Source: a virus
Taxonomy: Duplodnaviria > Caudoviricetes
Strand: one strand, 5' to 3'
DNA: 64,000 nucleotides
Virus record (IMG/VR): IMGVR_UViG_3300021387_000301
Span: 3,273-67,272 of that record
The translations under genes were made by a program, and so were the position numbers. Positions 1-52,479 of the stretch are shown here, piece by piece (the stretch's first letter is position 1; every line of letters begins with the position of its first letter). The notes beneath the pieces were generated by a model, which was not told the DNA's origin, made no database searches, and saw only the letters and a program-made list of their open reading frames with translations.

Positions 1-50
1 TGACCCTCACGGGCTGTCGGAGGCGCGGTATTAGCCGCGCTCTCCGTAGT

Positions 51-230
51 TCAGCAGGGAATAGCGTTCTCACGGAACTCTCTTAGGAGTCCGAAACGTT
101 TTCCGAGTTTGTAGAAATAATCTCCAATGATTGCCAGACCTTCGTAGCTATACGGATAGTCGCTGTCATTCAACTGCCAGTCAATAGCCTTTTGGCGGGC
201 GGCTTCTTTTCTTTTCTGATAGTTGTTCAT
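51..230 (-). CDS. small early phage protein (59 aa)
   Basis: Hand-translated MNNYQKRKEAARQKAIDWQ...LLREFRENAIPC*; A-rich leader; just below the ORF-track cutoff. Confidence 0.7.
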   Translation of the reverse strand: MNNYQKRKEAARQKAIDWQLNDSDYPYSYEGLAIIGDYFYKLGKRFGLLREFRENAIPC

Positions 231-317
231 AATTGTATGGATTTAAGTGTGGTGTGCTTTCCCCGAAAGTTATTTCAGAGAAAGCGTAGGTGTTAGATGC
301 GCGTCAAGTTTTCGTAC

Positions 318-536
318 TCAGTGGCAAATCCTGTCGGGGAATAGCACAGGCCAAGTTTTCAGTCCATGCACTTTGAGATAGTTTCTCGCAGTGGCCTTGC
401 TGTCGGCCAGCGTGTCGGAACGGCCGTAAATCATATCAACGGGGTTGAAAAGGCTCTTGCCCCAAAGGTAATAGCCGAAAGAACGTGTGTACTCGATTTT
501 GAATCCTTTGTACTCTGTGAATTTCTTAATTTCCAT
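318..536 (-). CDS. hypothetical early protein
   Basis: ORF 318..587, start moved to MEIKKF with ATTATG context; its TGA overlaps the AGTACGAAAA motif. Confidence 0.7.
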   Translation of the reverse strand: MEIKKFTEYKGFKIEYTRSFGYYLWGKSLFNPVDMIYGRSDTLADSKATARNYLKVHGLKTWPVLFPDRICH

Positions 537-593
537 AATTGTTTGTTTTAGGGGTTGTGCGCTGCGCCCCGGAACTGGCCGAGGCACAACAAT

Positions 594-908
594 TCAGCAA
601 TTTTGCAAATTCCAAAGGATGTCGTCAATTTCCTCTTTCGTCGGTTCTTCGCCGATGAATGAGAAATACGGATGGCTGTCCGTTGTGATGTCGAAACCGC
701 TGGCGGGAAAGCTGTTCGTCTGCCAAAAGAGGATTATGTGGTAAGTGTTCAGCCTTTTTTGCAGAAAATAGCCAGTCCAGTCGCCTGCCGAACTCGTTTG
801 CTCGGTGTATTCTACGCGGGCTACGCTCTTGAAACTTTGCAGGAACTCCTGCGGGGCATACCAAGTTCCTTCGACGTGGTATTGCCGATTTGTGAGCAAA
901 TTATTCAT
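594..908 (-). CDS. hypothetical early protein
   Basis: ORF 594..1001, start moved to MNNLLT (ATTATG context). Confidence 0.65.
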   Translation of the reverse strand: MNNLLTNRQYHVEGTWYAPQEFLQSFKSVARVEYTEQTSSAGDWTGYFLQKRLNTYHIILFWQTNSFPASGFDITTDSHPYFSFIGEEPTKEEIDDILWNLQNC

Positions 909-973
909 AATTTTGTTGTTTGGGGGTTGTTTCGTAGATTGGCAGTCTTTACGGCTGCGCAATCTTTGTGCTT

Positions 974-1189
974 TCAAAGGTTTGGGTATCGGCAAAAACA
1001 AGCTGCAACCATCTCTTTGAATGGTCTGTTAGAGAACATTCTTTCAACGGAAATTTTGTAGCCGTGAAGTTTTCTCGCCACCGTTTCAGCTTCTTCTTTT
1101 GTTTCGTAGTACCCGAATCTTTCGGTGTCATGACTCACTTCTGACTTTTGAACGCGAATCATAAAAACTGGGATGTTGTAGTCACACAT
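974..1189 (-). CDS. hypothetical early protein
   Basis: 71-aa ORF; start overlaps the upstream stop (ATGTGTGA). Confidence 0.55.
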   Translation of the reverse strand: MCDYNIPVFMIRVQKSEVSHDTERFGYYETKEEAETVARKLHGYKISVERMFSNRPFKEMVAACFCRYPNL

Positions 1190-1349
1190 AGTTTAGAGAT
1201 TTTTTGTTTAACTGATTCCATACTGCTCGCACATACTGAACGGCCCAAAAGAAATTAGGGAACCGACTGATTGTGTGCGCATCTTCCACGCGATAGACGC
1301 AATTCACGTCTTTGTAATCGTAGATAATAGAAAATCCTTTGTAATCCAT
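1182..1349 (-). CDS. hypothetical early protein (55 aa)
   Basis: Hand-translated MDYKGFSIIYDYKDVNC...; AACCCTAAAA leader; N-terminus resembles the YKGFKI of the 318..536 protein. Confidence 0.6.
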   Translation of the reverse strand: MDYKGFSIIYDYKDVNCVYRVEDAHTISRFPNFFWAVQYVRAVWNQLNKKSLNYV

Positions 1350-1412
1350 ATAATTTGAGTTTTTAGGGTTATTCGTGCAATATTCGTACTTTCGCGCGAA
1401 TATCGCTAAAGA

Positions 1413-1694
1413 TTAGAAGAACTTGTCTGGCTCCGGGTTGACGGTTTTCTGCATAAGGTATAGTCTGTGGCGGAATGATCGGCCGTTTTGGTGTGTCTCT
1501 ATTCCTCCGGCAGCGCGGTTGACTGCGTGGTGGAACCAATCAGGCTTTTTAAGGAATGGATTGAGTGCCAAGCCCATATCGTAGAACTTGTTGGCCGCAG
1601 CTAAATCGGTGAACACTTCCGTTGAGGCGATTGCATCAGTCTCATCGTTACAAATTTCATACCAAAGGTGGGTAACAACATAAATCTTTTCCAT
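1413..1694 (-). CDS. hypothetical early protein
   Basis: 93-aa ORF in the cassette array with ATTATG start. Confidence 0.7.
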   Translation of the reverse strand: MEKIYVVTHLWYEICNDETDAIASTEVFTDLAAANKFYDMGLALNPFLKKPDWFHHAVNRAAGGIETHQNGRSFRHRLYLMQKTVNPEPDKFF

Positions 1695-1812
1695 AATTCA
1701 ATTTTTTAGAGTTAGTAATGTCAATCGTTTGTTCCCTGCTCGGCTTTACGTTGTTCAGGGAATAGTGTTTTCGTACTCGCGGAGGGAGTTGACACACCGC
1801 GAGCATTGAGAA

Positions 1813-2265
1813 TTAGTCGGCCTTGAAAAATTCGTTGATCTTGGAAACGATATCCGTGCGGGAGCCGATGAACCAGAAGCCATCGTTATCGTAGCCGCGA
1901 GAAACGACGAGAACCTTGTCTCCTGCGAGAGCGCCGTAGACAATCTTGCGCGCGCTCTCAATCAGATTCTTGCCCCGTTCCTCATTCGGATTAATTCCTT
2001 CAACGAGAATGTAAGCCTGAAGGATGGTGTCGGCGTCGGCGGGAGTCTTGACTTTGACGAGTTCGACGATGTTGTCTTCGCAGCCAACCGAGAACACGTG
2101 GTATTCGTCGGTAGTCTTCACGACGATTGCTTTGTATTTCGCGAGAACGACGGCCTTCGCGGTCTTCTCGTACTTCTCGCACTCTTCTGCATTCTTGAAC
2201 TCCGTGCCATCGTTGGCAACATAGACGGTCACATAATTCTTTACTTCTTTCTGAATCTTTTTCAT
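1813..2265 (-). CDS. hypothetical early protein
   Basis: 150-aa ORF with ATTATG start. Confidence 0.75.
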   Translation of the reverse strand: MKKIQKEVKNYVTVYVANDGTEFKNAEECEKYEKTAKAVVLAKYKAIVVKTTDEYHVFSVGCEDNIVELVKVKTPADADTILQAYILVEGINPNEERGKNLIESARKIVYGALAGDKVLVVSRGYDNDGFWFIGSRTDIVSKINEFFKAD

Positions 2266-2352
2266 AATTGTAAGTTTTTTTGTGGGTTAATAAATTTAGA
2301 ATTAAAAAATATTCGCGCCACACCTCGGTATTCTCCAAGATGCGGCTTTTTT

Positions 2353-2583
2353 TCAGCAGAAATTAACGTGGTTCAGGATGTGCTTTGCGAGCCTGGGGTA
2401 ATACTCCGTGAGCACGCCCATCATTTCGGCGCGGTCTGCTTTGCGCAGGCGCTTAAAATCGTTGACACTCTGCATATCGCAGGAATTGCAGGCGAGCCAG
2501 TAATCCCAGACTGCTGCAAGTTCGTAAGCGTTGTGCTCTTCGCACTCGTTGGCCTTGGCCAAACCTTTGATCGTGTAAGCCAT
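2353..2583 (-). CDS. hypothetical early protein
   Basis: 76-aa ORF preceded by the cassette motif. Confidence 0.7.
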   Translation of the reverse strand: MAYTIKGLAKANECEEHNAYELAAVWDYWLACNSCDMQSVNDFKRLRKADRAEMMGVLTEYYPRLAKHILNHVNFC

Positions 2584-2660
2584 AATTCAAAATTTGAGGG
2601 TTAGACATTTTTCGTACTCCCGCAGGCATTTAAGGCTGCGGAAGTTTTTTGCGGAGATTT

Positions 2661-3344
2661 TTAGAGATAGTAAGTGTTGCTCACTATATACTCCGTCTTG
2701 AAGAAATCGCGCAGGTGGTAGTTGCTCTTTGCGTAATCTTCTATCACGCTGTACACCTTTGCGGCCATTTTGCGCGTCTTGTCATAGTCGCGGACGGCTT
2801 TCTTCCACATCGTAATCTGGTCGGAGAGAATTTTTTCGGCATTGTCGGCGTAGGAGTCCGTCGTTTCGAATATAACTCTTTCAGCTGGTGATGTGAGGAA
2901 AATTTTCAGTCGGAATGATTCTCTGGCCTGATAGCGCTGGCCGCAGCGGGAGGTGGAAATTTCCAGCCTGCCGACATTTGCTTTCTGTTCGTAATCGTAC
3001 TCTATGTTGAGCGTACAATACATGAAACGGTCTATCTTTTTCAACTCATCGTTGAGAATATTCGACAGACGGCGGTTCAGCACTTTGCCGTCGAACGACT
3101 TGATGATTCCCATCGCAGCTTTGCGGCCTTTGATGAGCATTTTTAATGTCTCAATCTCGGTCTCGGCCTTCTCGGAGAAACGGCCTTTGCGGTCGTTCTC
3201 GATTCGTTCCTGCCGATCACGTTTTTCTTGTTCACGTTTCGCATCCCGCTCGGCAATCATTATTTTCTGCTCTTCGGGTGTTGCGGCATCGAATTTCGCT
3301 TTCCATTCACGATGCTGTGCTAAAATTGCGTTCATTGCTTCCAT
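2661..3344 (-). CDS. hypothetical early protein with coiled-coil N-terminus
   Basis: 227-aa ORF with a charged helical N-terminus. Confidence 0.8.
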   Translation of the reverse strand: MEAMNAILAQHREWKAKFDAATPEEQKIMIAERDAKREQEKRDRQERIENDRKGRFSEKAETEIETLKMLIKGRKAAMGIIKSFDGKVLNRRLSNILNDELKKIDRFMYCTLNIEYDYEQKANVGRLEISTSRCGQRYQARESFRLKIFLTSPAERVIFETTDSYADNAEKILSDQITMWKKAVRDYDKTRKMAAKVYSVIEDYAKSNYHLRDFFKTEYIVSNTYYL

Positions 3345-3411
3345 AATTTTGAGTTTTTAAAGGGTTAAACAATAGTTCGCAGCCGTGGGCGAAACTAATC
3401 GCCCAGGACTT

Positions 3412-3729
3412 TTAGAAATTCACGCGATAGAGCTTGTTCTCGTCGTGATCTTCGTACATGCAGTTGCCGTACTTGTCAAGCCATACGGAAAATTCGTGGT
3501 CTTTGATGGGGTCGCCGTTCTTGTCGTACTCGCGTTTCCACCAGCCGAAAGAATTATTCAGCCAAAAATACTGCGAATCTATCGGCCGCAGAAGGTTGCC
3601 GACAACCTGGAGGAAAAAGCTCTCGAATTGCGTTAAACTTGTGCAGCCAGTGCGGCGTTCAAAACCATTTTTGAACTCATCGTCGATTTGGCGAAGTTCA
3701 AGCTGTTCACGTTCCAAAATCTGAATCAT
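3412..3729 (-). CDS. hypothetical early protein
   Basis: 105-aa ORF preceded by the cassette motif. Confidence 0.75.
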   Translation of the reverse strand: MIQILEREQLELRQIDDEFKNGFERRTGCTSLTQFESFFLQVVGNLLRPIDSQYFWLNNSFGWWKREYDKNGDPIKDHEFSVWLDKYGNCMYEDHDENKLYRVNF

Positions 3730-3799
3730 AATTGTAAATTTTAGGGGTTAGACAATAGGCCGCAGGAAGCCTTTTTCGTACTTCCCGCAGAAAGGCGAT

Positions 3800-4300
3800 T
3801 CAGGCGGCGAAAGATGCAAACTCTTCTGGCGTGTCATGCTCGCGGGCTTCCTCTCCAAACTTTTCGTAGAGATATTCGTTGTAATCATCGCAAAGGGCGC
3901 AGAGGAAATTTTCATCTACACCGAAGGAATTTTCATAGTCTGACAAGTAAAGTGATCCCACCGTGATTTCGGTTCGAAGTGTCATGAGATTTTCGTATGA
4001 CAAATCCGAGATTTCGGCAAAGATTGAAAGGCTTTCAATCTCAGTCCAAAATTGTTCCCCGGAATCGTCCTGAACAAGAATTTCGTACTCGTCAGCGTTG
4101 AACCAGTAATAATCCATTTCTCCCAGAGAACAGAACTTTTTACTTTCCTTTTCGCGCATCACGGCGCTGCAAATAGTTACGATTTCGGATTTCTCCGTGT
4201 AGGGGATGGAACCATAACCTTTGCAGGTGGCGGCGTAGTAATTGTACTCGCGCCATGTGTGGCGTGCTTTCGCGCCGACTTCGATAAAGCTGTAACTCAT
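3800..4300 (-). CDS. hypothetical early protein with acidic C-terminus
   Basis: 166-aa ORF preceded by the cassette motif. Confidence 0.75.
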   Translation of the reverse strand: MSYSFIEVGAKARHTWREYNYYAATCKGYGSIPYTEKSEIVTICSAVMREKESKKFCSLGEMDYYWFNADEYEILVQDDSGEQFWTEIESLSIFAEISDLSYENLMTLRTEITVGSLYLSDYENSFGVDENFLCALCDDYNEYLYEKFGEEAREHDTPEEFASFAA

Positions 4301-4364
4301 AATTGTATTTTTTGAGGGTTAGTAATTCGTACTTCCGGCGGTCGCTAAACCGCCAGAAAGTTTT

Positions 4365-5066
4365 TCATGCAGTCTCTTCGTAGATACCTTTGAACAAAGT
4401 TCCGTCCTCGTAGAAAAGATTGTTTTCGTTCCAGTTTGTAAGTTGTTCCTCGATGGCTGAGTCTGTGTCGCACCAGTATTCGTACTCTTTGTGCCATGCA
4501 CTGAAGAGATTGTCAAGACACGTTTCAACCAAGTCTTTGAGGGAGAAACTTTTGCTGATGGGCTTCGCCAGAGTTTCGGCTATCGGCTGCATAACTTCGT
4601 AGTCGTAGCACACGCCAGTTAGCGGACAGTTGTCCCAACTTTCACGCTGAATCTTTGAGAAACGTTGTTTATTCCAACGGTGTTTCTCTCGGTTGTAGCC
4701 TGCATCGTACTTGTAATACTTCTTTGCTTTAAGTGCATACGGCATAAAGTTGTTGTTGAGCCAACGACGTAGAAGTTTGCCAGTGCATTCTTCGTTAGAA
4801 ATACAATAGTCGGTCCAATAGTTTTCGAAGGCGTAGTCGTTGTGAAAGTCGAACGAGAAATGATAGCTGCAATAGTCAACTTCGTAGCTGACTTTGACAC
4901 CCATCAACTCTGAAAACTTTTCAAGCGTACCTTCGTAGTCGCTTGCGTAACCATCCATAGTTTGGTAGCCAACGTTCCAACGTTCTTTGTCAACGATGGA
5001 CTTTCGTACTTGCTCTGAAAGTTCCTCGAACTTGTAGAGCTTAACTTTTACTTCTTTCATAATCAT
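4365..5066 (-). CDS. hypothetical early protein (aromatic-rich)
   Basis: 233-aa ORF; the N-terminal LYKFEELSE motif recalls a widespread phage family of unverified function. Confidence 0.75.
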   Translation of the reverse strand: MIMKEVKVKLYKFEELSEQVRKSIVDKERWNVGYQTMDGYASDYEGTLEKFSELMGVKVSYEVDYCSYHFSFDFHNDYAFENYWTDYCISNEECTGKLLRRWLNNNFMPYALKAKKYYKYDAGYNREKHRWNKQRFSKIQRESWDNCPLTGVCYDYEVMQPIAETLAKPISKSFSLKDLVETCLDNLFSAWHKEYEYWCDTDSAIEEQLTNWNENNLFYEDGTLFKGIYEETA

Positions 5067-5129
5067 AAAGTTTTAGAGGGTTAATAAATCGTACTCCCCG
5101 CGAAGAATTAACTCCGCAGGGAATTTTTT

Positions 5130-5579
5130 TCAGGCGCTTTCCAGTTCCTTTTCGTAAACTCTCTCGGAGAGATACGACCCGAAATTGTATTGGAACCAAT
5201 ATGTTCCGAAAGCGTAGGTGTACCAGTCAAACGCCCACGTCTGGAATTTTTGCAAATCCTCATCGGAAATCGTTTCGTCGTCGATGGATTTTACAATTTC
5301 CTCGAACTTGCCCCAGGGCGTTATCTCGCTGGGGATGAAGTCGGGCATATCGTTCCAATCCTGCTTAATATTGCAAAAATTCCCATCCATGTGGGTATCT
5401 TTTTTGTGAACATACCGTTTCATGGATTCCAGCGTTTCAAACGCCGCATTTTCGGCGTAGCTCTCACAAATGGACTCTAATTCACATTTTGCAAAATCAT
5501 CTTTGTAATCTTCGGCGACCTCGTTGCAGAGATTGAGAAACGTTTCGTAGACGTTCTCAAAATTCATAAAATCTTTCAT
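5130..5579 (-). CDS. acidic early protein (possible DNA mimic)
   Basis: 149 aa from MKDFMN; about 33 D/E versus 13 K/R by hand count. Confidence 0.7.
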   Translation of the reverse strand: MKDFMNFENVYETFLNLCNEVAEDYKDDFAKCELESICESYAENAAFETLESMKRYVHKKDTHMDGNFCNIKQDWNDMPDFIPSEITPWGKFEEIVKSIDDETISDEDLQKFQTWAFDWYTYAFGTYWFQYNFGSYLSERVYEKELESA

Positions 5580-5647
5580 AACAAAGTTTTTTAAGTTAAA
5601 CATAGCTTTTCGTACTCCCCGCAGGAATTAACCAGCGGAGAGATTTT

Positions 5648-5923
5648 TTAGAACGGAGACGTCCAGGGAAAATCCGAGGGGATGCCCCGGAAATTTTTCA
5701 GCCGTTCAATTTCTTCAAAGAATTGTTCTTTCGTCATTTCTCGCATATTCGGAATGGAACCGCCATGCGGGTATGTGTACACATAACTTGGCTTGCTGTT
5801 GGGATCGTAGAACCCTTTGAAGATTTTCATCACAGGGACGCCGCAGAAATAAATAACATTCTCTGCGCAGTCGGCATAGCAAGTGAAACACGATTTGATT
5901 TGGTCTGCAATAATCTTTTCCAT
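5648..5923 (-). CDS. hypothetical early protein
   Basis: 91-aa ORF preceded by the cassette motif. Confidence 0.7.
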   Translation of the reverse strand: MEKIIADQIKSCFTCYADCAENVIYFCGVPVMKIFKGFYDPNSKPSYVYTYPHGGSIPNMREMTKEQFFEEIERLKNFRGIPSDFPWTSPF

Positions 5924-5989
5924 AATCTTTTGAGTTTAGAGTTGAACATTTTTCGTACTCTGCGCCCGAACTGACGAGCGCGGAGAAAT

Positions 5990-6238
5990 TTATGCGAAGA
6001 TTATTTTCTTGCCACGGCGGCAGCAGTTAGCACCGAGAGCGCGCAGACGGCTCGCCGTTGTGACCGTCGGCCAGCCTGCATCCGTGAAACGTTTCTTGCC
6101 GTTCTTGATCTCGCAAATCATATTGTCGAACAAGAAAACGCGCGTGATTCCGTTCTTCACTTCTACGCGCGTATTGCTTTGGCTGAAATTGCGGCCAGCC
6201 TCTACGGCCTCGACCATCATTTTTTCAATCTTTCTCAT
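5990..6238 (-). CDS. conserved small phage protein
   Basis: MRKIEKMM...DAGWPTVTTASRLRAL resembles a common phage hypothetical family (recalled, not searched). Confidence 0.75.
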   Translation of the reverse strand: MRKIEKMMVEAVEAGRNFSQSNTRVEVKNGITRVFLFDNMICEIKNGKKRFTDAGWPTVTTASRLRALGANCCRRGKKIIFA

Positions 6239-6311
6239 AATTCAGATTTTTTAAATTGTTAGACAAAAGTTTTTCGTACACCCTGCGAGATTTGCCCCGC
6301 AGGGAATTTTT

Positions 6312-6482
6312 TCACGCCTGACAAATTCGGTAGTTCATACCGTTTGCCCGGAAATGTTCGGCCAGCCTGACGGCGGCACCATAGCCGAAACGCTTTGCAG
6401 CTTTCAGCTGCGCATTTTTCGGCGCGTGAACGTCGGAGCAATAAAAGCCCCGGCCGTTTTCGCATTTTAATACGTACTGCAT
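6312..6482 (-). CDS. hypothetical early protein (56 aa)
   Basis: Hand-translated MQYVLKCENGRGFYCSD...; fills the slot between two cassette motifs. Confidence 0.6.
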   Translation of the reverse strand: MQYVLKCENGRGFYCSDVHAPKNAQLKAAKRFGYGAAVRLAEHFRANGMNYRICQA

Positions 6483-6553
6483 AATTCAAAAAGATTTTGG
6501 GAAAAAGTTTTTCGTACTCCAGACGAAATTTAATCCGTCTGGGATTGTGCGCT

Positions 6554-6640
6554 TTATTTCGTGCCGACATACCAGCCACAGAGAATAAGCGCGACGAGCG
6601 GCAAATAAACCGCCAAATTTACGATCATATAAGTTTCCAT
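6554..6640 (-). CDS. 28-aa hydrophobic peptide
   Basis: METYMIVNLAVYLPLVALILCGWYVGTK*; fills the slot between two cassette motifs; one predicted TM helix. Confidence 0.5.
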   Translation of the reverse strand: METYMIVNLAVYLPLVALILCGWYVGTK

Positions 6641-6703
6641 AATCAAAAAGTTTTGAAGTTTTTTGTTGCCGAGGAATAATTTTTCGTACTCCCCGGCATT
6701 TTC

Positions 6704-6919
6704 TTACTGACGGCTGAATTTTGTCAGGCCGAGCATAATAAACAGCTCGACAGCCAAAGCCACGATCACGACGACGGGCACCAGAGCAAAGCACCAAAAG
6801 CCCGAAACATTAAAAACGTCGTGAAGATAGTTTGCAGCGCACGCGCCGCAGTAGATAGATGCCAAAACGACCGCCAGCACAATCGTACCGAACGAAAGCC
6901 AAGAAACTAAATTTTTCAT
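6704..6919 (-). CDS. small membrane protein
   Basis: 71 aa with two hydrophobic segments. Confidence 0.7.
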   Translation of the reverse strand: MKNLVSWLSFGTIVLAVVLASIYCGACAANYLHDVFNVSGFWCFALVPVVVIVALAVELFIMLGLTKFSRQ

Positions 6920-6993
6920 AACGAATTTTATTTAAGAGTTGAACATTTTTCGTACTCCTGGAGCAATTTTCGTACTCCGGGAGATTTTTCGTA

Positions 6994-7107
6994 CTATTCG
7001 AAAAAGGCTTTTAAATCTTTGTCGGAGAGCGCGCCTATAATTTCACACATCTTTTCGTCGCCGTACATGTTGCACAGTGTTTCGGCAAGTTCGAAATAAT
7101 TTTCCAT
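6994..7107 (-). CDS. 37-aa acidic peptide
   Basis: MENYFELAETLCNMYGDEKMCEIIGALSDKDLKAFFE*; its TAG overlaps the motif (TAGTACGAAAA). Confidence 0.55.
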   Translation of the reverse strand: MENYFELAETLCNMYGDEKMCEIIGALSDKDLKAFFE

Positions 7108-7161
7108 AATTCATTAAGTTTTTTAAGGTGAGACAAAAGTTTTTCGTGAAAGCGAGCGCGT

Positions 7162-7455
7162 TTAAACGCTCGCAATCTGGGCAAGATAATAATTTCCGCG
7201 TTCCTCCGGCAGGATGTAGTCCAGTTCAATATCAAAATTGCCGAAAATCTTTCGCACGACATTTTCGTCGTCAACGTCACGCGGCACCCAGGCGAAAAAA
7301 TACTCGCCCGGTTCAAGTTTGGTTTCTTCTAAGAGACCGCCAAAATATTTTGCGGCGTCGCGATCATCGTCGAAAACTTTCACCGTGCCGCAGTCCTCAA
7401 TGAGGAACCAGTCGGCACAAAGCAGCTTAACGACTTTCAAAGCATTTTCTTTCAT
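7162..7455 (-). CDS. hypothetical early protein
   Basis: Start moved to MKENAL (ATTATG context). Confidence 0.7.
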   Translation of the reverse strand: MKENALKVVKLLCADWFLIEDCGTVKVFDDDRDAAKYFGGLLEETKLEPGEYFFAWVPRDVDDENVVRKIFGNFDIELDYILPEERGNYYLAQIASV

Positions 7456-7507
7456 AATCAAAGTTTTTTTAGGGTTGAACAAAAGTTTTTCGTTTCCGCC
7501 GTTCCGA

Positions 7508-7780
7508 TCAAAGAGCGGCGAAATAATAGGTTCGGAATTTCTTGAAATCAATTCCGTTTGCGCTCAGAACCTCTTTCGAGATTCTCAAATCTTTCATGCG
7601 CTCTTTGAGAAATTCAAAGTTCGCAATAATTTCCCCGGCAAGCCAGGAATTTTTGTCTAAACAATTTTCGCCGCCGAGCTTTTCAATCTGGCGGGAAATA
7701 TCATTCAGGCGCACACGAATGATCGTGCAGCACCTCTCCGCTGGCGTTTTTTCAGCCAGCCAGGTAACTGTATCTTTCAT
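7508..7780 (-). CDS. hypothetical early protein, first gene of the array
   Basis: 90-aa ORF. Confidence 0.7.
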   Translation of the reverse strand: MKDTVTWLAEKTPAERCCTIIRVRLNDISRQIEKLGGENCLDKNSWLAGEIIANFEFLKERMKDLRISKEVLSANGIDFKKFRTYYFAAL

Positions 7781-8847
7781 AAATCATTTTGTTTTTCGGT
7801 GAATAAAAAGAGAGCACGCCGTTATTTTTCAAACAGCGCGCCCGGAAAACTCCACGCCGACAAATTTTCTCTGCCCGCGCGAAGTGAAAAACTAAAACTC
7901 AATTATGAATTATTTTTCCAAAAACGAAAATGCAATTTTGAATAACGAATCTTTTCACAAAGATCGCCAGAGCGAAAAGAATAGTTTTTTGTCCGTAAAA
8001 ATTTCTAAAGAGAAAAATTTATGGGCAAAACTTTTTCTTTTCCTAAAAAACTTTTTCGCTTTGGTGTGCAAAACTTGCAACCGCTTTGCACGTCGGGCCG
8101 TGACCCGCTGTCACCGTCGGCACCGCCATAGACCCGCACCACACCGACCGCCAGCAGCACCACCGCCACAGCTCCCAAAGGGAGCAGCGGCAGCAGAGCC
8201 ACAGCAGGCCGGGCAGGGCAGGCAGGCAGCACCGACGGCCGCCACCGCTCAAACATCCACAGCGGCCACCGCTCCAAAGGAGCAGCAGCGCAGGACGCCC
8301 AGCAGGCAGCAGGCAGCAGGCAGCGCACGCGCAACGCCCGACAGCCACCAGCGCCAGCGGTGCCGCCGATCATCTTTCGGCCGCTGTGCCACTCTTACAA
8401 CGAGCAGCAGCAGCGACCCCGGACGAGCAACAGCGCAACCAGGGCAGGCAGCAGGCACACCGCGCGAGGACCACAGCAGGCAGGCAGCAGGCCAGAGGCC
8501 AGCAGCACCCGCCACCGCTTTTGAACTGTGCCCCGCCACTATGGCAGCGCCCCGGACGACCAAACAACGGCCGTTAAATCCAGGGCACCCCACAGCGGCG
8601 GCAGCTCCACCCGCGCAGCGTGCAACGTTAACCACCTTTGGCAGCTCCCAGCCGAGAGGCCGGGCGGGCTGTTTGTTCGGTCTAATCTGCGCTCATATAG
8701 GGCAGCAGTACGGACCGCCGAAAGTAGCCGTTAAAGTGCTTTTAGTGACCTTTGCAGGCCAGGCCCCACCACCGCGACAAGGTAAGCACTTTTGGAGAGG
8801 AAAGCCCCAGCGGGCAGAGCCGCCAGGGCGCGCAGGGCGCGCAGCAG

Positions 8848-9855
8848 TTAGGCAAGTAACGCCTCAGCCGTAGCAATAGCCGAGAGAGCACGACGGCGGC
8901 GGGCGTTAAGTTTAGCCACCTTTGCGGCGTAGGTGGTGCCGTTGTCATCTTTGCGGCCTGTCTGCTGGCGTATGGTTATTACAGCGGCCTCAAGTTCACG
9001 CTCATTTGCGCGCAGGGCAGCAATGTTAGTCCGGAGCTGTTTGCGCTGTTTGCCGTCGGTCGTGTCGGCGTGATTATAGGCAGCGACAGCCTCAGCGGCC
9101 AGCCGCTCCGCGTCCCAACCCAGACGCGCAGCAGCGCGCGCGAAGTTAGCGAGAGAGGCGCGCAGGCTCGCAGCCTCAGCAGAGCGGGCAGCACTAATAG
9201 AGCGCTCAACGTTGACCAGGTGACGAACGGACAGCAGCGCACTAACAAGCGCAGCGGGCGTAGCGTCGGCAGGCACAGCGGCGGCGGTCACATAATCGGC
9301 GGCAGCACTGTTAGCGCGTATGGTGCCCAGTGGCAGCGCTGTTAGTGTATATTGTGTTATTTGCTCAGGCACGGCACACCCGCACACCTTTGTGAATATT
9401 TCAGCGCGAGCAGCAGCGGCGGCCAGCACATCGGCGGCACAGCAGGCGGGCGCTACATTTTCCGGGCGTTTGCTCCACGTCAGGCGGGCAGCGTTTAGCA
9501 TCTTTTCGGAGAGATCGGCAGGCAGCGCAGCCACAGCAGCAGCAACGGCGGCATATTCTTCGGAGTCCTCAAAACGTGGGCCGGAAAATTCAGCCAGTAT
9601 GGCGGCGGCTAATTCGCGCACGTTTGCAGGTTCAGCGGCCATAGTATCTGCCACCATAGCGGCGGCGAGTTGATCGGCGGCGGGCTGGTGTCCGTTTTCT
9701 TTGTGTGCAACCTCAACAGCAACGGCGGCGGCTATTTGCTCTGCGCTGTGCTCGTTGTTCTTGATCTGTTCGGCGGCTACCTTTGTGCCGTTGGCTTTGT
9801 TGCTCTTGTGGGTGCTATTCTTAACAGCTGTCCCGACGTTTTTCTTTGTTGTCAT
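8848..9855 (-). CDS. Ala-rich hypothetical early protein
   Basis: 335-aa ORF with a TTAAACACTTAAACAATTATG leader. Confidence 0.75.
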   Translation of the reverse strand: MTTKKNVGTAVKNSTHKSNKANGTKVAAEQIKNNEHSAEQIAAAVAVEVAHKENGHQPAADQLAAAMVADTMAAEPANVRELAAAILAEFSGPRFEDSEEYAAVAAAVAALPADLSEKMLNAARLTWSKRPENVAPACCAADVLAAAAARAEIFTKVCGCAVPEQITQYTLTALPLGTIRANSAAADYVTAAAVPADATPAALVSALLSVRHLVNVERSISAARSAEAASLRASLANFARAAARLGWDAERLAAEAVAAYNHADTTDGKQRKQLRTNIAALRANERELEAAVITIRQQTGRKDDNGTTYAAKVAKLNARRRRALSAIATAEALLA

Positions 9856-10197: not shown

Positions 10198-10585
10198 CAA
10201 AAAACATCATTTTTACACCCCGGAACACGGCAAAAAAGCAATAAATTTGCAGTTTTAACAAAATTATTTACAAAATTAACAAAGGGAGTGGGGCGATTTT
10301 CAGCGCGTAACTTGCAGAAAGACAGATTTTTAAGCCAAATTTTGGTTACATTATACGGTCTAATGCAACCTTGCATATTTGCTACAAAGTGGGGGTACAC
10401 CCCCTATTTGACAACGACAGGTCGTTACTGACCTCCCCTCGGAATTTTTTACTCATTTTTCAATTTTTTTTATTTTTCATCATCATTTAGGCCGTGTGAT
10501 GCTGTGGTGTTGGTTTGGGTGCTGTAGGGGTGCTGTTTGTTGTCATTGTGTACCAAGTGCTGTATTTTGCCTATGTTTTGGCAGT

Positions 10586-16100: not shown

Positions 16101-17864
16101 TCAGTGTGTGCTGTTCCAGCTTTGCCAGTTGTTCTCATTGGCACGGTTGCCCCATTTGTCCGTGCCTACGGTGCGAGGACGCCCGCGACCTCGGCCAGTG
16201 GCCACGTTGCCCTTGCGTGCGCGGACCTTGTTGGCTTCATCGTCGTCGCTGCTCTCTTCGGATGTGCCGTTGTTGACATCGGCCTGAGCCTCGATAACAT
16301 TGATCTGTTGCTCGGTCTGGATGTCCGCAAGCTGCTCCTGGGTCTCCACGGTGTTCTCCTGCTGTATGTCGAGGCGCTGCTCTTCGAGAAGGAGTTCCTG
16401 CATCTTCTCGTCGTGCTGCTCTTTCTCGATGCGTTTCCATTCCTGCGGCGTGGAGAAATAGAACTTCTCCGATGCCGTGCGGCGTGAGCAGAACTTGTTC
16501 TGCACGGCCATAGCGAGGTTCGTGGTGACTTCCTGGTCGTTGACGGGCAGGAAAGGAGTTACGTAGAAACTGATGCGGGTGTTGAGGAAATTGAGCCTGT
16601 TCTGGCTTTCTATGCCGTAGCCCCACTTGAAGATGTCGATAACCTTGCGTATAAACTCATCATACTCCTGTGCTTCGAGCATCGCCTTGTTGTAGGAATC
16701 CGAATACAGCAGCTTGATGGCGGCTGCGGGAGTGTCCCCGGATTTGAGTTCCGGGGCCTTGATGACCATCGACTGCGAGTATATCTTGGCTTCCAGCATA
16801 TCGAGCTCCGTCTTGTAGGCGTTGGAGGCATCCTGTCTGTTCAGGAACTCTGCCTTACCCTCGGCGGGTATGATGAATATCTTGGAGGCATAGGACATAT
16901 TCTTCGTGGAGATTTCCTTTATCTGCTTGCCTGAGCCGTAGAGGCCGAGGATAGGCAGGCCGAAATCGTGGTTGTTCTGCGCCAGACGCGAGAAAGCGGC
17001 CTCGCGGTGTTCTATCGTCTCCTGCGAGGGCGACCATACGGGACCGTCGTTGCGGCGGTGGTATGAGAAAGGAGCGTAAGGCCATCCGTGCGGCTCCATA
17101 TATTCAAGGCCGTAGCCGTCCAGGCTGAACTCTTGAAGAATAGGTGTCTTGTCCTCTTCGACGATATTTTCGCCGCCCGACACGAAACGGTAGTAGTATT
17201 TGTCGTCCCATACATCGACATACTGGTGCGTCTCGCCATCATCGCCGAACTCGCTGTAGGTGCGTGCGAGGACCGAGGGCTTGCCCGTGCGGCGGTCGTA
17301 ATGAGGATAGAGGACATCGCCGTTCTCGTAGGAGAAAACCTTCCACTCGAACTTGCCTTTATCCATATAGCCCACGAAGGCGGTGTCGCCCACGGACATA
17401 GAGGCTTTGGCGGCATAGTGCCAGGCGTTCTCCATACGTTTGTCAGCCCACCCCGCCTTGAAATCGGCATAGATGCGCCAGCTCTCTTCCGAATCATCCT
17501 CTTCGGCGAGGTCGAACTGCACATCGTTGCCCGTGAGGCGCGCGAGGCGATCATCGAGGATTTCCTGCTGGTAGGCGAAGGCATAGCGCGGGAAGTCCTC
17601 TTCGTAGTAGAGGCCGTCCTTGCCCTCGCGGTAGTTGATGTAGACGTTCGGGTCGTTGATGGCGTGGCTGCTGGGGTCGAGTTCACGGAGGAAATCGGCC
17701 TGCGTCACCTCGGTGTAAACAACACCATCAGGCATTAGGGGCTTTTCTCCCACATTATGCAACGCTGCGGCATCAGACCTCGGTGAGGCTTCGGGGGAAA
17801 TGCGGTAGAACGGCTTTTTCGTCAGCAGCCCCCGCTTTCTCTTTTTAACGTTTTGTTGTTCCAT
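16101..17864 (-). CDS. portal protein (SPP1-like)
   Basis: 587 aa next to the terminase; DTPAAAIKLLY segment resembles the SPP1-portal SG.A.. motif. Confidence 0.8.
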   Translation of the reverse strand: MEQQNVKKRKRGLLTKKPFYRISPEASPRSDAAALHNVGEKPLMPDGVVYTEVTQADFLRELDPSSHAINDPNVYINYREGKDGLYYEEDFPRYAFAYQQEILDDRLARLTGNDVQFDLAEEDDSEESWRIYADFKAGWADKRMENAWHYAAKASMSVGDTAFVGYMDKGKFEWKVFSYENGDVLYPHYDRRTGKPSVLARTYSEFGDDGETHQYVDVWDDKYYYRFVSGGENIVEEDKTPILQEFSLDGYGLEYMEPHGWPYAPFSYHRRNDGPVWSPSQETIEHREAAFSRLAQNNHDFGLPILGLYGSGKQIKEISTKNMSYASKIFIIPAEGKAEFLNRQDASNAYKTELDMLEAKIYSQSMVIKAPELKSGDTPAAAIKLLYSDSYNKAMLEAQEYDEFIRKVIDIFKWGYGIESQNRLNFLNTRISFYVTPFLPVNDQEVTTNLAMAVQNKFCSRRTASEKFYFSTPQEWKRIEKEQHDEKMQELLLEEQRLDIQQENTVETQEQLADIQTEQQINVIEAQADVNNGTSEESSDDDEANKVRARKGNVATGRGRGRPRTVGTDKWGNRANENNWQSWNSTH

Positions 17865-17930: not shown

Positions 17931-20681
17931 CTATGCGAAATCGAATGTCCTCACGTTTGCGATATGACTGCCGAGGAAAGAGGGTATCTCGGAATCCTCT
18001 CCCTTGACCTCGAAAATCTCAAACATAAGCAGTGCCTCTATGAAGTCAGGGGAATGGCCTACGAGGCTCTTGTGCTTCATCTGCTCCTTATGGATGAGAC
18101 ACCATCCCCTATCCTGCTTGCTCATATCCTGCCGTATGGCCTTGCGCTCCGTTTGCAGGATGGTGTAGAGGCGCATCGTTGTCTTGCCGATGATGAACTC
18201 CCTGTCGAGCAACGAAGGCTCGACGCTCCACTCCCCCTGCTGCGTATGCTGCGCGAAGGTGTAGGCGCACTGCGACTTGATGTTGTTGTACAGCTTGCGG
18301 TTCTCGTAGTCGGGAGCCTCTTGGTTGTTGAAAGGCACGGCATTGGGGAAAGCGCCTTTGAACACCTGCCCCATACCTTGAAGGTCGTATGTAAAGTTCT
18401 GCTCCAGCACACCCCACTCTTTCAGCTTGGCTTTGATGAGGGGTATCGTGGAGTAAGGATCGCGGCGGCATACGAAAACATCCTGAACGTGGTTGCCCAC
18501 CTTAAACCATGTCACGCAGTTGTCACCGCCGTCGCCTGCCACGTCGCACGAAGCCCTCTTAACCTTGTCGCCCAGCATCGCGGCATTATGGAAACATTTG
18601 TCGAGGTGGAAAGCCTGGATGAGGTCGTTGCCAGTGCGCACGATGTCCCAGTTGCCTTCAAGTTCGCGCGCCCTTATCTCTGGCGGCTGCTGGTAGAGGT
18701 TCTTGATATAGTCCTCATCGAGGGCCATAAGAGCCTTGTTGTCGAGGAGGTCGGCCTTGGTAAAGCGGAAGGACTTGACGAGGAATGTCTCGCGCGTATG
18801 GCCGAACTGCGCGAGGCTCGGCGACCACGCCTCATCCGCGATGTCCTTGATTTGGAGATAGACCTCGCGTGGTGTGTTGCCCCAAATGGTATTCTCCACG
18901 TTATCGTCGGGAGAATAGAAGTAGCGTGTCTTGCCGCTCCTTTCGGGGATGATGAACCCCTTGCGCTCCGGGTGCAGCTTGCCATCGGCGTATATAGTGT
19001 CGGCTTTGCCTATGTACCAGTCGAGGAAACGCCGCAGCCACGACAAAGGATCGGGGTTGCAGGTAAAGAGGATGCGCGACTTGATATTGTTGGTGTTTCG
19101 GTTCACCGTGGTAAGGAACTTGAACATCTTGAACGACATCTGCGGCACCTCGTCTATGCCTATATATGCGAACTGCTGTCCGCGATAGCGGTCGTCGAAA
19201 TCCTGATAGGCCATATCGAAATAGGAGAGACTGAGTTTGGCCCCGGAATGGAAGTACCAGGTCATATCGTCGCTGCTCCTATTGTACTTGCCGAGAGGTT
19301 CGTACCATTTGCGCGTCTCGCCGATGATGTTCTCAAAGTCACCTTTGTTCTTACGGAAAATGATGCCGTTGAAGTATTTGTTCGTGATGTCGGGCAGCGG
19401 CTTTGTCAGCAACATCGCCGTATTATGATTGATAGTGAAGGCATCGGTGAGATACAGGTGCTCGTTGCCAGTGATAGTGATACAGCGGCAGGGAGACTTG
19501 GCTGCATCTTTCCTTATCCACATAATCTTTTTCGTCAGCACCGTCTCATCGTAGCCTTCGGGGCGTTTCGTAGGCAGCTTGCCGTAGATGTGCGCTCTCG
19601 AAATATACATAGCGTTGGCGGTAAAGAACTTGCGGTCGTCGGGGGCTATGAACATAAGCCGCCAGTAACCGACCTTCGTGGGGTCGTCGTTGACCTCGGC
19701 CACGCGCGCCCAGATACCGAGGGAGCGCGCCAGCTGCGCCACCTGCTCCAGCAGTATCTTGTTGGCCATTTCAATGATCGGATGCTTTCTCCACGAACGG
19801 CCGTTGCGTTTCATCATCCCTGCAAGGAAATCCCAGCGGGCTTTCGGCGAGGCGAGCATATATGAGTCGGGGATGGTGGCGAAACCTTTTTTCCAAAGGT
19901 TGTCGTTGAAGATTTCCCTACGTTGTTTCGGTGATATGCCGCGCAGCCTTCTCGACACTCCGTTGTTGTCAACACCTATTTTCAAGCCTCTGCTGCGGGC
20001 TATTATGTTCAGCGTCCTGTCGGTCTTGGGTATTATGATACCGCCCCTATCGGCTTCCCACGTTCCTTGCCCGAGGATATAGCCGAGGAAGAACGGGTCT
20101 ATCGGCAGTTTCTCATCGGGGACGGAATTAAATTCCACCTCCCCGCAGAGAGGTATCTCAAACATGTGGAGGTGTTTGTTGCGGAGGGAATAGGGGTACG
20201 GCTTGTCAAGACGATAGATATCGAAAATCTCGCGCGCCTCCCACAGCCTGAAACGGTCGCTTTCCGTCTCGCGCCCCCAGAACCTATGATTATCCATACA
20301 CTTAAGCGATGAGCCGTCGTCGAAGAACAGCGTGTAGGTTGTCTGCTCTCCCTGCTCGAAGATGGCCGACACCTGCTGTATGCCTTCGTATGGCGTACAG
20401 ATATAGTCGCCCACCTCCAACTCGCCCATCCTGCGGAAACCGCTGGGTGTGGCTACGAGGGTGTTGTATGTGTTGGCCTTGCCCCCACCACGGTTGCCTC
20501 CTGTGCCATCGACATCGGCACAAGAGTGCTGTACGTGTTCCTGCGCCCCTTTCTGCGAAATGAAAGTCCTTGACGCTACTTTCTTTTTTCTTTTCTCTTC
20601 TTCTACAGAGCGCAGTTCCTCTACACTCTGCTGCGCATAGACGTTCCTTCCGTCTGCTGCGTGTAATATAATGTTGCCCAT
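17931..20681 (-). CDS. terL: terminase large subunit with intein
   Basis: Walker A GGNRGGGK|T split by the intein, Walker B YIGIDE, TCNP coupling motif, RNase H-like CDVAGDG and PDFIEAL. Confidence 0.92.
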   Translation of the reverse strand: MGNIILHAADGRNVYAQQSVEELRSVEEEKRKKKVASRTFISQKGAQEHVQHSCADVDGTGGNRGGGKANTYNTLVATPSGFRRMGELEVGDYICTPYEGIQQVSAIFEQGEQTTYTLFFDDGSSLKCMDNHRFWGRETESDRFRLWEAREIFDIYRLDKPYPYSLRNKHLHMFEIPLCGEVEFNSVPDEKLPIDPFFLGYILGQGTWEADRGGIIIPKTDRTLNIIARSRGLKIGVDNNGVSRRLRGISPKQRREIFNDNLWKKGFATIPDSYMLASPKARWDFLAGMMKRNGRSWRKHPIIEMANKILLEQVAQLARSLGIWARVAEVNDDPTKVGYWRLMFIAPDDRKFFTANAMYISRAHIYGKLPTKRPEGYDETVLTKKIMWIRKDAAKSPCRCITITGNEHLYLTDAFTINHNTAMLLTKPLPDITNKYFNGIIFRKNKGDFENIIGETRKWYEPLGKYNRSSDDMTWYFHSGAKLSLSYFDMAYQDFDDRYRGQQFAYIGIDEVPQMSFKMFKFLTTVNRNTNNIKSRILFTCNPDPLSWLRRFLDWYIGKADTIYADGKLHPERKGFIIPERSGKTRYFYSPDDNVENTIWGNTPREVYLQIKDIADEAWSPSLAQFGHTRETFLVKSFRFTKADLLDNKALMALDEDYIKNLYQQPPEIRARELEGNWDIVRTGNDLIQAFHLDKCFHNAAMLGDKVKRASCDVAGDGGDNCVTWFKVGNHVQDVFVCRRDPYSTIPLIKAKLKEWGVLEQNFTYDLQGMGQVFKGAFPNAVPFNNQEAPDYENRKLYNNIKSQCAYTFAQHTQQGEWSVEPSLLDREFIIGKTTMRLYTILQTERKAIRQDMSKQDRGWCLIHKEQMKHKSLVGHSPDFIEALLMFEIFEVKGEDSEIPSFLGSHIANVRTFDFA
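19422..20477 (-). mobile_element. intein (352 aa, Ala1) with degenerate LAGLIDADG-type endonuclease
   Basis: A-NTYNTLVATPSGFRRMGELEVGD N-terminus, block B NHRFW, block F CRCITI, C-terminal HN|T. Confidence 0.88.
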
Positions 20682-51210: not shown

Positions 51211-52479
51211 TTAGTTTTGGGAATCCGTGGTCTGCGAAGATCGCGGATTTTCTTTGTACCTACCCTCAAACTTGTTAAGGAACTCCACTACCCTATAGAT
51301 GGCGGCATCTATCTTCCGTTGGTCGTGCGAGATATAGCGCGACGTTACCTGCTTGCCTGATGCCCAAGCGTGGCCGAGGCATTTTCCTATCGTGCTTTCC
51401 GATATATCGAGGTCATTGGCCGCTACGCTTGCAAAGGTATATCTCGCGCTGTAGGAGGTTATACAGGGGAAAATAGGGCTTCTCTCTATCTTGCGCAGCT
51501 TGCCCAGCTTGTCGGGAACCAAGCGTGACGGCCCTATCTTCTTCAAGGCCGCGTTCCAATGCTGCATAAAAGTGTGATAGTCCTTCATATTATCCATAAT
51601 ATTCAGCAGATAATTCTCGCCCTTGTACTTGTTGATGATAGCCATAGCCTCCGGGCAGACTGGCAGGCTAATCTTGCGTGATTTCGTGGAGTTCGCCTTG
51701 TCCGTTTTCCTGCGCACGAACACGAAACGCCCTTTCTCCAGACCCTTGCACAGCAGCATATCACCTACATTGACGCCTGCGAGGTATGTGGAAAGGCAGA
51801 ACATATCTATGTATATCTGCTGCCACGGCTCGCAGGGATAGTCGCGCAGATCAGCGAACTCCTGCGCCGAGAGAGCGTTGGGTATCGTTTCTTCCTCATG
51901 AATCTTGTACCCGTCACGCCCCCGGAAAGGATAGTTGTCCGTCAAACCCTGCTCCCTGCACCAGTTGAAAACGGTGCGGATGCAGCGCATTTTCTGCGCG
52001 ATTCCGTTCACTGAAAGACCCCGTTTTTCCCTAAGCCAAACTTCTAATTTACTCAGCCAAGGCTCGCGGGTTGAATCAAGGCACGCTGTCGGGTCGAACT
52101 CGCGCACGCGGTCGCTGGTGTTCCTATATAGAACAGCCGTGCTTTTCTTCAATCCTTCGGCGTATTTCGCGCAGTAGTAAGCAAGAGTGTCGGTCTCGCA
52201 GACGTCGCGCTCCACGCCGTCTATATCTGCTTTTATACTATCTTTCAACTCGTTAAGGGTCACATTGGGTTTTCTGCAACATATACGATCCAGCCTGTCA
52301 ACTATCCATGCGAGCTGCTTTGTTTTGAGCATCTGCTGCTGGCTGACAATGCTGCTTTCTGATGTAAAACCAGTGGCGATTAACATTTTTTTACCGCCAT
52401 TGAGAAGGCGTATCTTTATAGGGTATGAACCGTCCGCCAGAGGGCGTCTTGTATCTATAAAAAGGTCGTATTTTGTCAT
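51211..52479 (-). CDS. int: tyrosine integrase (Bacteroidota type)
   Basis: Arm-binding N-terminus DGSYPIKIR; RKT, YSAR, LGH and catalytic Y in VTSRY. Confidence 0.9.
   Translation of the reverse strand: MTKYDLFIDTRRPLADGSYPIKIRLLNGGKKMLIATGFTSESSIVSQQQMLKTKQLAWIVDRLDRICCRKPNVTLNELKDSIKADIDGVERDVCETDTLAYYCAKYAEGLKKSTAVLYRNTSDRVREFDPTACLDSTREPWLSKLEVWLREKRGLSVNGIAQKMRCIRTVFNWCREQGLTDNYPFRGRDGYKIHEEETIPNALSAQEFADLRDYPCEPWQQIYIDMFCLSTYLAGVNVGDMLLCKGLEKGRFVFVRRKTDKANSTKSRKISLPVCPEAMAIINKYKGENYLLNIMDNMKDYHTFMQHWNAALKKIGPSRLVPDKLGKLRKIERSPIFPCITSYSARYTFASVAANDLDISESTIGKCLGHAWASGKQVTSRYISHDQRKIDAAIYRVVEFLNKFEGRYKENPRSSQTTDSQN

Follow-up and report, generated by a model that had tools for sequence, protein, structure and literature searches.

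A hairpin followed by the conserved heptamer AGTACGA recurs at the gene junctions of a small-gene array in a putative Prevotella-type phage

In the viral contig IMGVR_UViG_3300021387_000301, the junctions between the small open reading frames (ORFs) of an array encoded on a single strand contain a composite element, namely a hairpin of 12 bp with a loop of 6 nt, the foot of which runs into the heptamer AGTACGA (the box). We analyzed a window of 64,000 nt, which comprises positions 3273–67272 of this 67-kb IMG/VR contig (completeness rating 74%), and compared it with the arrays of related phages. The heptamer turned out to be fixed and the stems to covary, in agreement with the structure-plus-sequence element that had been proposed in an original prediction made from the sequence of the window, and the fold is selected on the sense strand. 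We tentatively read each intergenic joint as a composite gene-junction module of the PeSL type that would act on a long polycistronic sense transcript. For the exposed heptamer, the reading that we favor, at somewhat less than an even chance, is that of an RNA-level docking or processing site.

The anatomy of the element was derived from a motif-anchored alignment of the units, which is gap-free and contains 10 inner base pairs and a 6-nt loop, often TTAATT. In the units used for this purpose, which were chosen beforehand for having a hairpin, so that the pairing is partly circular but the common register is not, 92% of the cells are paired, compared with 56% in shuffled sequences and about 50% when the register is slid; covariation reaches a score of 0.98 (shuffled, 0.26), and double changes are found at 9 of the 10 pairs. 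The first bases of the motif take part in the stem: G0 faces a C or U in 98% of the units and U+1 (T in the DNA) an A or G in 84%, whereas the pairing of A+2 is at the background level (35%). Because the G and the T of the motif thus add two closing pairs to the 10 inner pairs, the element is a 12-bp stem with a 6-nt loop followed by single-stranded ACGA(W)AA, which corrects the earlier description of a hairpin whose 3' base runs into the motif. A hairpin in exactly this register is present at 57 of 167 sense-strand sites, compared with 0.6% of random positions. The base of the stem reads A-Y-U-U / A-A-G-U, and the stem sequences are almost wholly different between copies, unlike REP/RAYT or CRISPR-type repeats. 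Array hairpins that lack the box have the same 12/6 geometry and are located about 23–35 nt upstream of the next ATG. The tail after the hairpin is either the exact box or an unrelated sequence; forms with one mismatch are few, and the decayed variants CTACGAT and GTACAAT are present in distal cassettes. A covariance search of positions 1–8000 against Rfam returned two chance-level matches only (E above 3) and no family. Judged by eye, a mimic of a Cas6 site or CRISPR repeat was rejected because the stems are not conserved, and a tRNA-like minihelix because neither the loop nor the tail fits; complementarity to 16S rRNA was also considered by eye and dropped.

To compare the two strands, units were chosen in a strand-symmetric manner, requiring at least 7 Watson-Crick pairs of 10, which yielded 57 units. 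Their non-Watson-Crick cells comprise 58 G·U but only 15 A·C combinations (p = 4e-7). In addition, folding energies favor the sense over the antisense strand in 28 of 34 units, by a mean of 4.1 kcal/mol. The excess of G·U over A·C shows that the sense strand, and hence the mRNA, is where the fold is selected.

Within the window, the exact sequence GTACGAAAA occurs 12 times, always on the minus strand and between positions 309 and 6994, and it is absent both from the plus strand and from positions 7000–64000, in line with the earlier remark that it was not noticed outside this region. About 0.5 occurrences of a 9-mer are expected by chance in 2 × 64 kb; with up to one mismatch, GTACGAAAA gave 30 matches versus 13 ± 3.5 in shuffled sequences. 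The intergenic density of the motif is 6.4 per kb versus 0.24 per kb by chance. The excess of GTACGA inside ORFs is a coding effect: most copies are in the frame xxG-TAC-GAx and encode Tyr followed by Asp or Glu (38 of 60). When the regions upstream of the genes were aligned on the start codons, they revealed the order stop codon, A-rich stretch, GC hairpin, (G/A)AGTACGA, TAACCCT-type block, A-rich stretch, and AATTATG. The unit layout described originally was thereby recovered, and its example at 2608–2650 is correct.

Relatives were sought with the portal protein, which gave 19 viral contigs, and with a profile (A1) built from an alignment of the conserved first array gene, which recovers 11 arrays. 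This gene is the only cassette that is conserved at the head of every related array. In all 11 arrays, a sense-strand cluster of AGTACGA begins 250–500 nt downstream of the start of the first gene, and the carriers include two complete or near-complete genomes of 106–107 kb with portals just 50% identical to that of the phage analyzed here. The invariant part is AGTACGA only. The A-run that follows it in the window, and that had been included in the predicted invariant motif, is particular to this genome and replaced by (T/A)AA in the relatives; moreover, several junctions lack the motif. The leader block of the relatives is of the TTCAC or TAAC type rather than TAACCCT, and within a genome the leaders have been made alike (TAACCCT in this phage, TTCAC in relatives). 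A covariance model (R1) was built from 49 units, a check that the original prediction had suggested, and in five whole records (two of them complete, 106–107 kb) it matches arrays only and the coding strand only, with the motif conserved in the relatives. A first portal scan of species genomes was empty; a profile scan then gave prophages of Prevotella and Petrimonas with portals 35–48% identical, and these have neither motif clusters nor a homologue of the first gene. In the LoVEphage-type phage BI-TP1 (portal 36%), the motif is at the background level. The pattern GAGTACGAAAAA...TAACCC gave 7 single matches in viral contigs, which is the chance level, a blastn search with positions 1–8000 against GenBank phages found no match, and a search of viral contigs with the primase protein found no relatives. 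In the literature, the word itself led to unrelated primers only, and nothing relevant was found on Bacteroides phage intergenic motifs or Bacteroides terminators.

The distance from the motif to the ATG peaks at 26–36 nt, with about 29 nt of unstructured leader between the hairpin and the ATG, and no second conserved block keeps a constant spacing to the motif. When the leaders are aligned on the ATG, conservation is seen for A at −13/−12, −6, and −3, and for UU at −2/−1; the adenines agree with the translation rules of Bacteroidia, and their positions are initiation determinants measured in Flavobacterium johnsoniae (PMC6847099). The canonical −7 box TAHHTTTG, which is located 4–5 nt from the transcription start (PMC6847099), is nearly absent inside the arrays, in line with the earlier statement that the element is not the host TAnnTTTG promoter. 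In several relatives, such boxes are found 0.5–1.2 kb ahead of the first gene of the array, and they also precede the primase gene. The profiles Sigma70_r2, Sigma70_r4_2, and NusG had no match in five genomes, including two complete relatives, nor did a T7-type RNA polymerase profile in five genomes, although the latter result is weak, since the control matched nothing either. Because the −7 boxes lie upstream of the arrays and not inside, and no sigma factor, T7-type polymerase, or NusG was detected, the simplest view of the arrays is that they are long polycistronic units, provided that the box is not itself a promoter of an unconventional kind. Scans for sigma-70-type promoters and for terminators are uninformative for this host. 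A few cassettes (L044 10282; L042 15559) have a canonical TAHHTTTG only 3–7 nt before the ATG, so that their transcripts would be leaderless or almost so. An antisense ECF-type promoter was judged by eye and rejected, the spacing being too short.

The gene order in the relatives shows that cassettes are gained, lost, and replaced at the junctions, a comparison that the original prediction had likewise called for. In an all-against-all comparison of the arrays, few cassettes are shared, but their order is kept, and the 11 relatives are mosaic. The pairs L040/L042 (93–98% identical in shared blocks) and L038/L039 differ by whole-gene replacements bounded by junctions, and module-bounded differences were also seen between L019 and L036. 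In the former two pairs, the replacements and insertions have their bounds just past the ATG, ahead of it, in the leader immediately 3' of the hairpin, or in the last codons in front of the hairpin; the hairpins travel with the upstream ORF. Breakpoints that are scattered in this way, with no single fixed base, match PeSL-like shuffling rather than integron-like or site-specific recombination. In PeSLs, recombination occurs between conserved regulatory modules (PMC2839356; PMC4122927). The proposed shuffling joint of the RB49 PeSL type is thus borne out as far as whole-gene replacements bounded by junctions are concerned, but the breakpoints do not coincide precisely with the motif. Four contigs of the same clade (G000, L043, L044, and L047) end within the small-gene array, which suggests that the assembly is interrupted by the repeated joints or by differences in cassettes between strains.

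Among known systems, the PeSL and PmSL modules of RB49/phi1, PST, and nt-1/KVP40 (PMC2839356; PMC4122927) are also repeated between small ORFans of a hyperplastic region, and in both cases a stem-loop is located directly upstream of a conserved regulatory word, which is followed by translation signals and the ATG. Further common features are that the modules delimit the ORF insertions, deletions, and replacements by which close relatives differ, and that there are two module classes per genome (here with and without the box). However, the joints described here have no sigma-70 or host-type −33/−7 promoter, and their conserved word is the heptamer, which shares two pairs with the stem, always in the same register. 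In addition, the hairpin has a uniform 12/6 geometry with a semi-conserved loop and no U-tract, so that a terminator function is not evident, the host belongs to the Bacteroidales, and the leader has no Shine-Dalgarno sequence. The RNase III sites between the early genes of T7 are likewise hairpins between the genes of a polycistronic phage transcript with a conserved stem-foot sequence, and after cleavage the hairpin would remain on the 3' end of the upstream message; the T7 sites, however, are irregular stems of at least 20 bp with an internal loop, in contrast to a perfect 12-bp stem with a single-stranded conserved tail. The boxB-boxA pairs of rrn leaders and lambda nut sites also combine a hairpin of variable sequence with a conserved single-stranded word and form outward-pointing clusters downstream of promoters, to either side of a control region. 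Nevertheless, the rrn leaders of Prevotella and Petrimonas bear a boxA-like CGTTCTTTG and no GTACGA, the arrays contain dozens of copies rather than one per operon, and no N-like or NusG-like protein was found. With integron attC sites, the array shares the one-way order of cassettes, each closed by a hairpin whose base is conserved and whose stem varies, but GTTAGAC-like words are found only on the other strand of the leader and have no partner. Unlike in an intrinsic terminator, the sense-strand tail is ACGA(W)AA and not a U-tract.

An RNA-level role of the heptamer is suggested by its fixed register with a stem selected in RNA, by the exposed tail, and by the lack of core promoter elements and of a phage polymerase or sigma factor. 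According to this proposal, the hairpin after each stop codon would guard the 3' end of the upstream message and prevent the next start region from pairing with sequence upstream of it. The box is placed at the hairpin foot in a subset of junctions that are mostly promoter-proximal, its G and U closing the stem and ACGA(W)AA being left single-stranded. This exposed tail would be a docking or cleavage site for an RNA-binding factor with sequence specificity, which could be an endoribonuclease or else a regulator loaded onto nascent RNA. The putative factor would mark one co-regulated set, composed of the proximal cassettes and the leader of the divergent primase operon, and the conserved joints would double as homology patches for cassette shuffling. 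The more specific version, in which the hairpin and the ACGA(W)AA tail are read by a phage- or Prevotella-encoded RNA factor (an endoribonuclease, or a regulator of processivity or translation) that punctuates a promoter-less transcript of 10–17 kb into individually stabilised messages, is less probable than not; if true, it would be a new RNA-punctuation system for Bacteroidales phages, which lack Shine-Dalgarno-based control.

Several observations weigh against an RNA-level role. All relatives contain tandem clusters of 2–6 boxes near the array head that have no hairpin (spacing 10–12 nt in G005/G003, 11 nt in G004, and 15–41 nt elsewhere), and in five relatives 1–3 boxes on the opposite strand precede the divergent primase operon, where they lie in non-coding DNA and point toward the primase. 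Because of these hairpin-free clusters and primase-side copies, the heptamer is a recognised unit by itself and marks two divergent transcription units, and a readout of seven bases, three of them inside the stem, would be easier on duplex DNA. Conversely, the box-less hairpins with their equal geometry and distance to the ATG indicate that the hairpin needs no box. No nuclease or RNA-binding protein was identified; the product of the first array gene (90 aa) is predicted to be a neutral three-helix bundle (pLDDT 89), and the comparison of its fold gave a generic bundle as the best match (Z 7.4) and no informative one. Furthermore, repeated motifs before small early phage genes have usually proved to be promoters (PeSL and PmSL; PMC2839356, PMC4122927). 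In favor of an RNA-level role, on the other hand, −7 boxes on the minus strand precede the primase-side boxes, which can therefore be transcribed as well; the primase's own −7 box follows about 0.5 kb further downstream. The helical phasing of the tandem boxes (10–12, 15, 19–22, 26, and 37–42 nt) follows no clean multiple of 10.5 and is not decisive for DNA binding.

That the heptamer instead functions at the DNA level is a real possibility, though short of probable. AGTACGA(W)AA would then be a phage-specific promoter element or activator box at which the host RNA polymerase is redirected by a phage factor, as at T4 middle or late promoters, and each proximal cassette would have its own promoter directly behind the stem-loop of the upstream gene, as in the PeSL and PmSL modules, in which the order of stem-loop, promoter, start signals, and ATG is identical. 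Boxes that stand alone in tandem at the array head and before the primase operon, outward on both sides, would be expected of such an element, and so would the conserved small gene ahead of the first boxes, the exact-or-absent occurrence that phage promoters tend to have, and the limitation to a mostly contiguous proximal block that resembles a temporal class; a transcription start about 6–10 nt past the box would yield leaders of 15–25 nt. However, neither TAHHTTTG nor any other conserved block is found at a fixed distance from the box, no sigma factor, RNA polymerase, or NusG was detected in the two complete relatives, and six boxes about 11 nt apart cannot all be promoters. Moreover, a DNA element does not require the strict register in which G and T close the stem (98% and 84%), and the primase has a canonical −7 box of its own downstream of the boxes.

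It is improbable that the heptamer has no function of its own and was merely handed down with one junction subtype, which duplication and gene conversion would have spread and homogenised among the cassettes, with selection acting on the hairpin and the leader only. Such a history would fit junctions that lack the box but are otherwise alike, the decayed copies in distal cassettes, and the homogenised leaders, which show concerted evolution within genomes, but the heptamer is identical across phages with 50%-identical portals, in which the adjacent stems have diverged almost fully, it is also present in clusters that lack hairpins and, before the primase, on the opposite strand, and its intergenic density is far above chance. 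We consider it very unlikely that the hairpin and the core form an attC-like site folded in single-stranded DNA, with the tandem boxes at the head as an attI-like landing site. The conserved stem base with a variable stem, the single orientation, the core repeats at the array head, the highly variable gene content, and the contigs that often end inside arrays recall integrons; nonetheless, the breakpoints in L040/L042 and L038/L039 are located after the ATG, in the leader, or at ORF 3' ends rather than at one core base, half of the cassettes have no core, RYYYAAC/GTTRRRY boxes and extrahelical bases are missing, no recombinase gene was recognised beside the array, where the neighboring proteins match no family (the only integrase detected is 44 kb away, next to cI), and the box also precedes the primase operon. 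Least probable of all is the earlier suggestion that the hairpins are intrinsic terminators for plus-strand transcription entering the array. It derives from the A-run before many hairpins of this genome, which makes the plus strand read a hairpin followed by a T-run, but this run is weak in the relatives, the plus strand, on which the folds are about 4 kcal/mol weaker, has A·C mismatches in place of the 58 G·U pairs, and a terminator scan was not above chance.

The inventory of the window comprises 9 hairpin-foot units, 3 with the motif in the loop or arm, 1 tandem triple, 1 hairpin-free copy, and 2 degenerate units, altogether about 17 and close to the 18 units predicted, although the array and some motif copies extend 3.2 kb to the left of the window. 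All units are on the minus strand. The typical hairpin-foot units are located at 6504..6545 (before the gene starting at 6482; R1 score 43.7 bits), 6266..6307 (gene 6238; 41.5 bits), 5945..5986 (gene 5923; 31.7 bits, outside the training set), 5602..5643 (loop TTAATT; gene 5579; 40.7 bits), 5081..5124 (loop TTAATT, GTACGATTT; gene 5060; 33.3 bits), 4319..4360 (GTACGAATT; gene 4300; 38.5 bits), 2604..2645 (the example of the original prediction; gene 2583; 41.2 bits), and 1763..1804 (gene 1694; 33.9 bits); the ninth is a weak unit within 6942–6984. The head cluster at 6942..6996 is the tandem triple AGTACGAAAA, with boxes at 6946–6996 spaced by 19–20 nt and with minimal stems. Folding placed the motif in the hairpin loop at 6676..6719 (16.3 bits), a variant that was also found in the relatives L044 and L047, and at 3768..3815, where the stem contains two G·U pairs, and it placed GTACGAATA within the hairpin at 1376..1412. 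The motif copy at 309..317 has no adjacent hairpin and lies 87 nt before the gene starting at 230. Hairpins with the degenerate box ACGAAAAA are present at 7476..7507 (box 7487–7494, before the gene starting at 7455) and at 7128..7160 (box 7141–7148, before the small gene starting at 7107). A hairpin and leader with no AGTACGA were found at 3345..3411 (type CTGC...CTATTGTTTAACCC, before the gene starting at 3344) and at 2266..2352 (before the gene starting at 2265), and such motif-less junctions also precede the genes starting at 908 and 536. Box-less junctions, in the distal cassettes of L038–L046 as well as at 3345–3411 of the window, often bear CTGC(C/T)-TATTGT(C/T)TAAC or (C)TATTATTCAC after the hairpin, and this word may define a second junction class.

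The array occupies positions 1..7780 of the window on the minus strand, with about 21 small ORFs according to the ORF maps, nearly all of them ORFans, and continues through the 3.2 kb to the left up to contig position 1, giving about 30 ORFs in total. In the left extension, the hairpin and the leader are kept and the heptamer is mostly missing. PHROG matches were obtained for just 2 of 20 array ORFs, and the designation of the array genes as early is an assumption. The conserved first gene, from which A1 was built, is located at 7508..7780 (minus strand); the 335-aa protein adjoining it is poorly modelled and gave no lead, and the array neighbors have no family match. Directly upstream of the array head, at 7905–8873, is a strand-skewed low-complexity stretch of about 0.9 kb, which is G/T-rich on the sense strand of the array and has a counterpart in the relative L019 (18600–19075); a plus-strand ORF of 322 aa within it, rich in Pro, Ala, Gln, and Arg, appears to be spurious. 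A conserved array gene of 46 aa (MKTFKQISDQIERIERLYY...), which is absent from the window, is found in L019 (20690–20840), L036, L035 (6397–6540), and L037. It is preceded by a strong AGGAGG-type Shine-Dalgarno sequence, which is unusual for Bacteroidales, the ribosomes of which ignore Shine-Dalgarno sequences. Upstream of the D5-type primase gene, a conserved non-coding block at 10330–10480, also present in L042 (about 7350–7480), L039, L045, and L046, contains a palindrome (GTTACATTATA...TATAATGT), a GGGGTACACCCCC-type hairpin, and T-rich repeats, and looks like a candidate origin or operator. In the relatives, AGTACGA boxes are located upstream of this block.

The window encodes a portal (16101–17864), a large terminase (17931–20681), and an integrase (51211–52479) next to an S24/HTH cI-type repressor (52873–53511), and the contig also codes for a tape-measure protein of 2152 aa, an antirepressor, RusA, and primase and helicase genes. 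The contig genes have no Shine-Dalgarno sequences, some are preceded by a TAnnTTTG (Bacteroidota) box, and the closest prophage relatives according to the portal profile are in Prevotella and Petrimonas genomes. Because of this gene content, the lack of Shine-Dalgarno sequences, the TAnnTTTG boxes, and the portal relatives, the phage is predicted to be temperate and siphovirus-like, with a Prevotella-type host. The terminase ORF of 916 aa has a weak homing-endonuclease match at residues 270–329, and the terminase domain begins only at about residue 420, so that the ORF may contain an intein or a fused N-terminal domain.

Phages of Prevotella and other Bacteroidales are abundant in the gut and rumen, and the control of their gene expression is hardly known. 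The heptamer is a signal that is invariant across 50% protein divergence, is easily searched, is tied to a hairpin with measurable selection in RNA, and labels the gene block that varies most in the genome. As a promoter, it would represent a new promoter class and imply that the host polymerase is redirected by an unrecognised factor; as an RNA site, it would represent a new mechanism of mRNA punctuation. Either way, the joints would explain how ORFans, which are likely to be host-takeover or anti-defence genes, can be shuffled without loss of expression, and the R1 model together with the first-gene family provides handles for finding such arrays in metagenomes.

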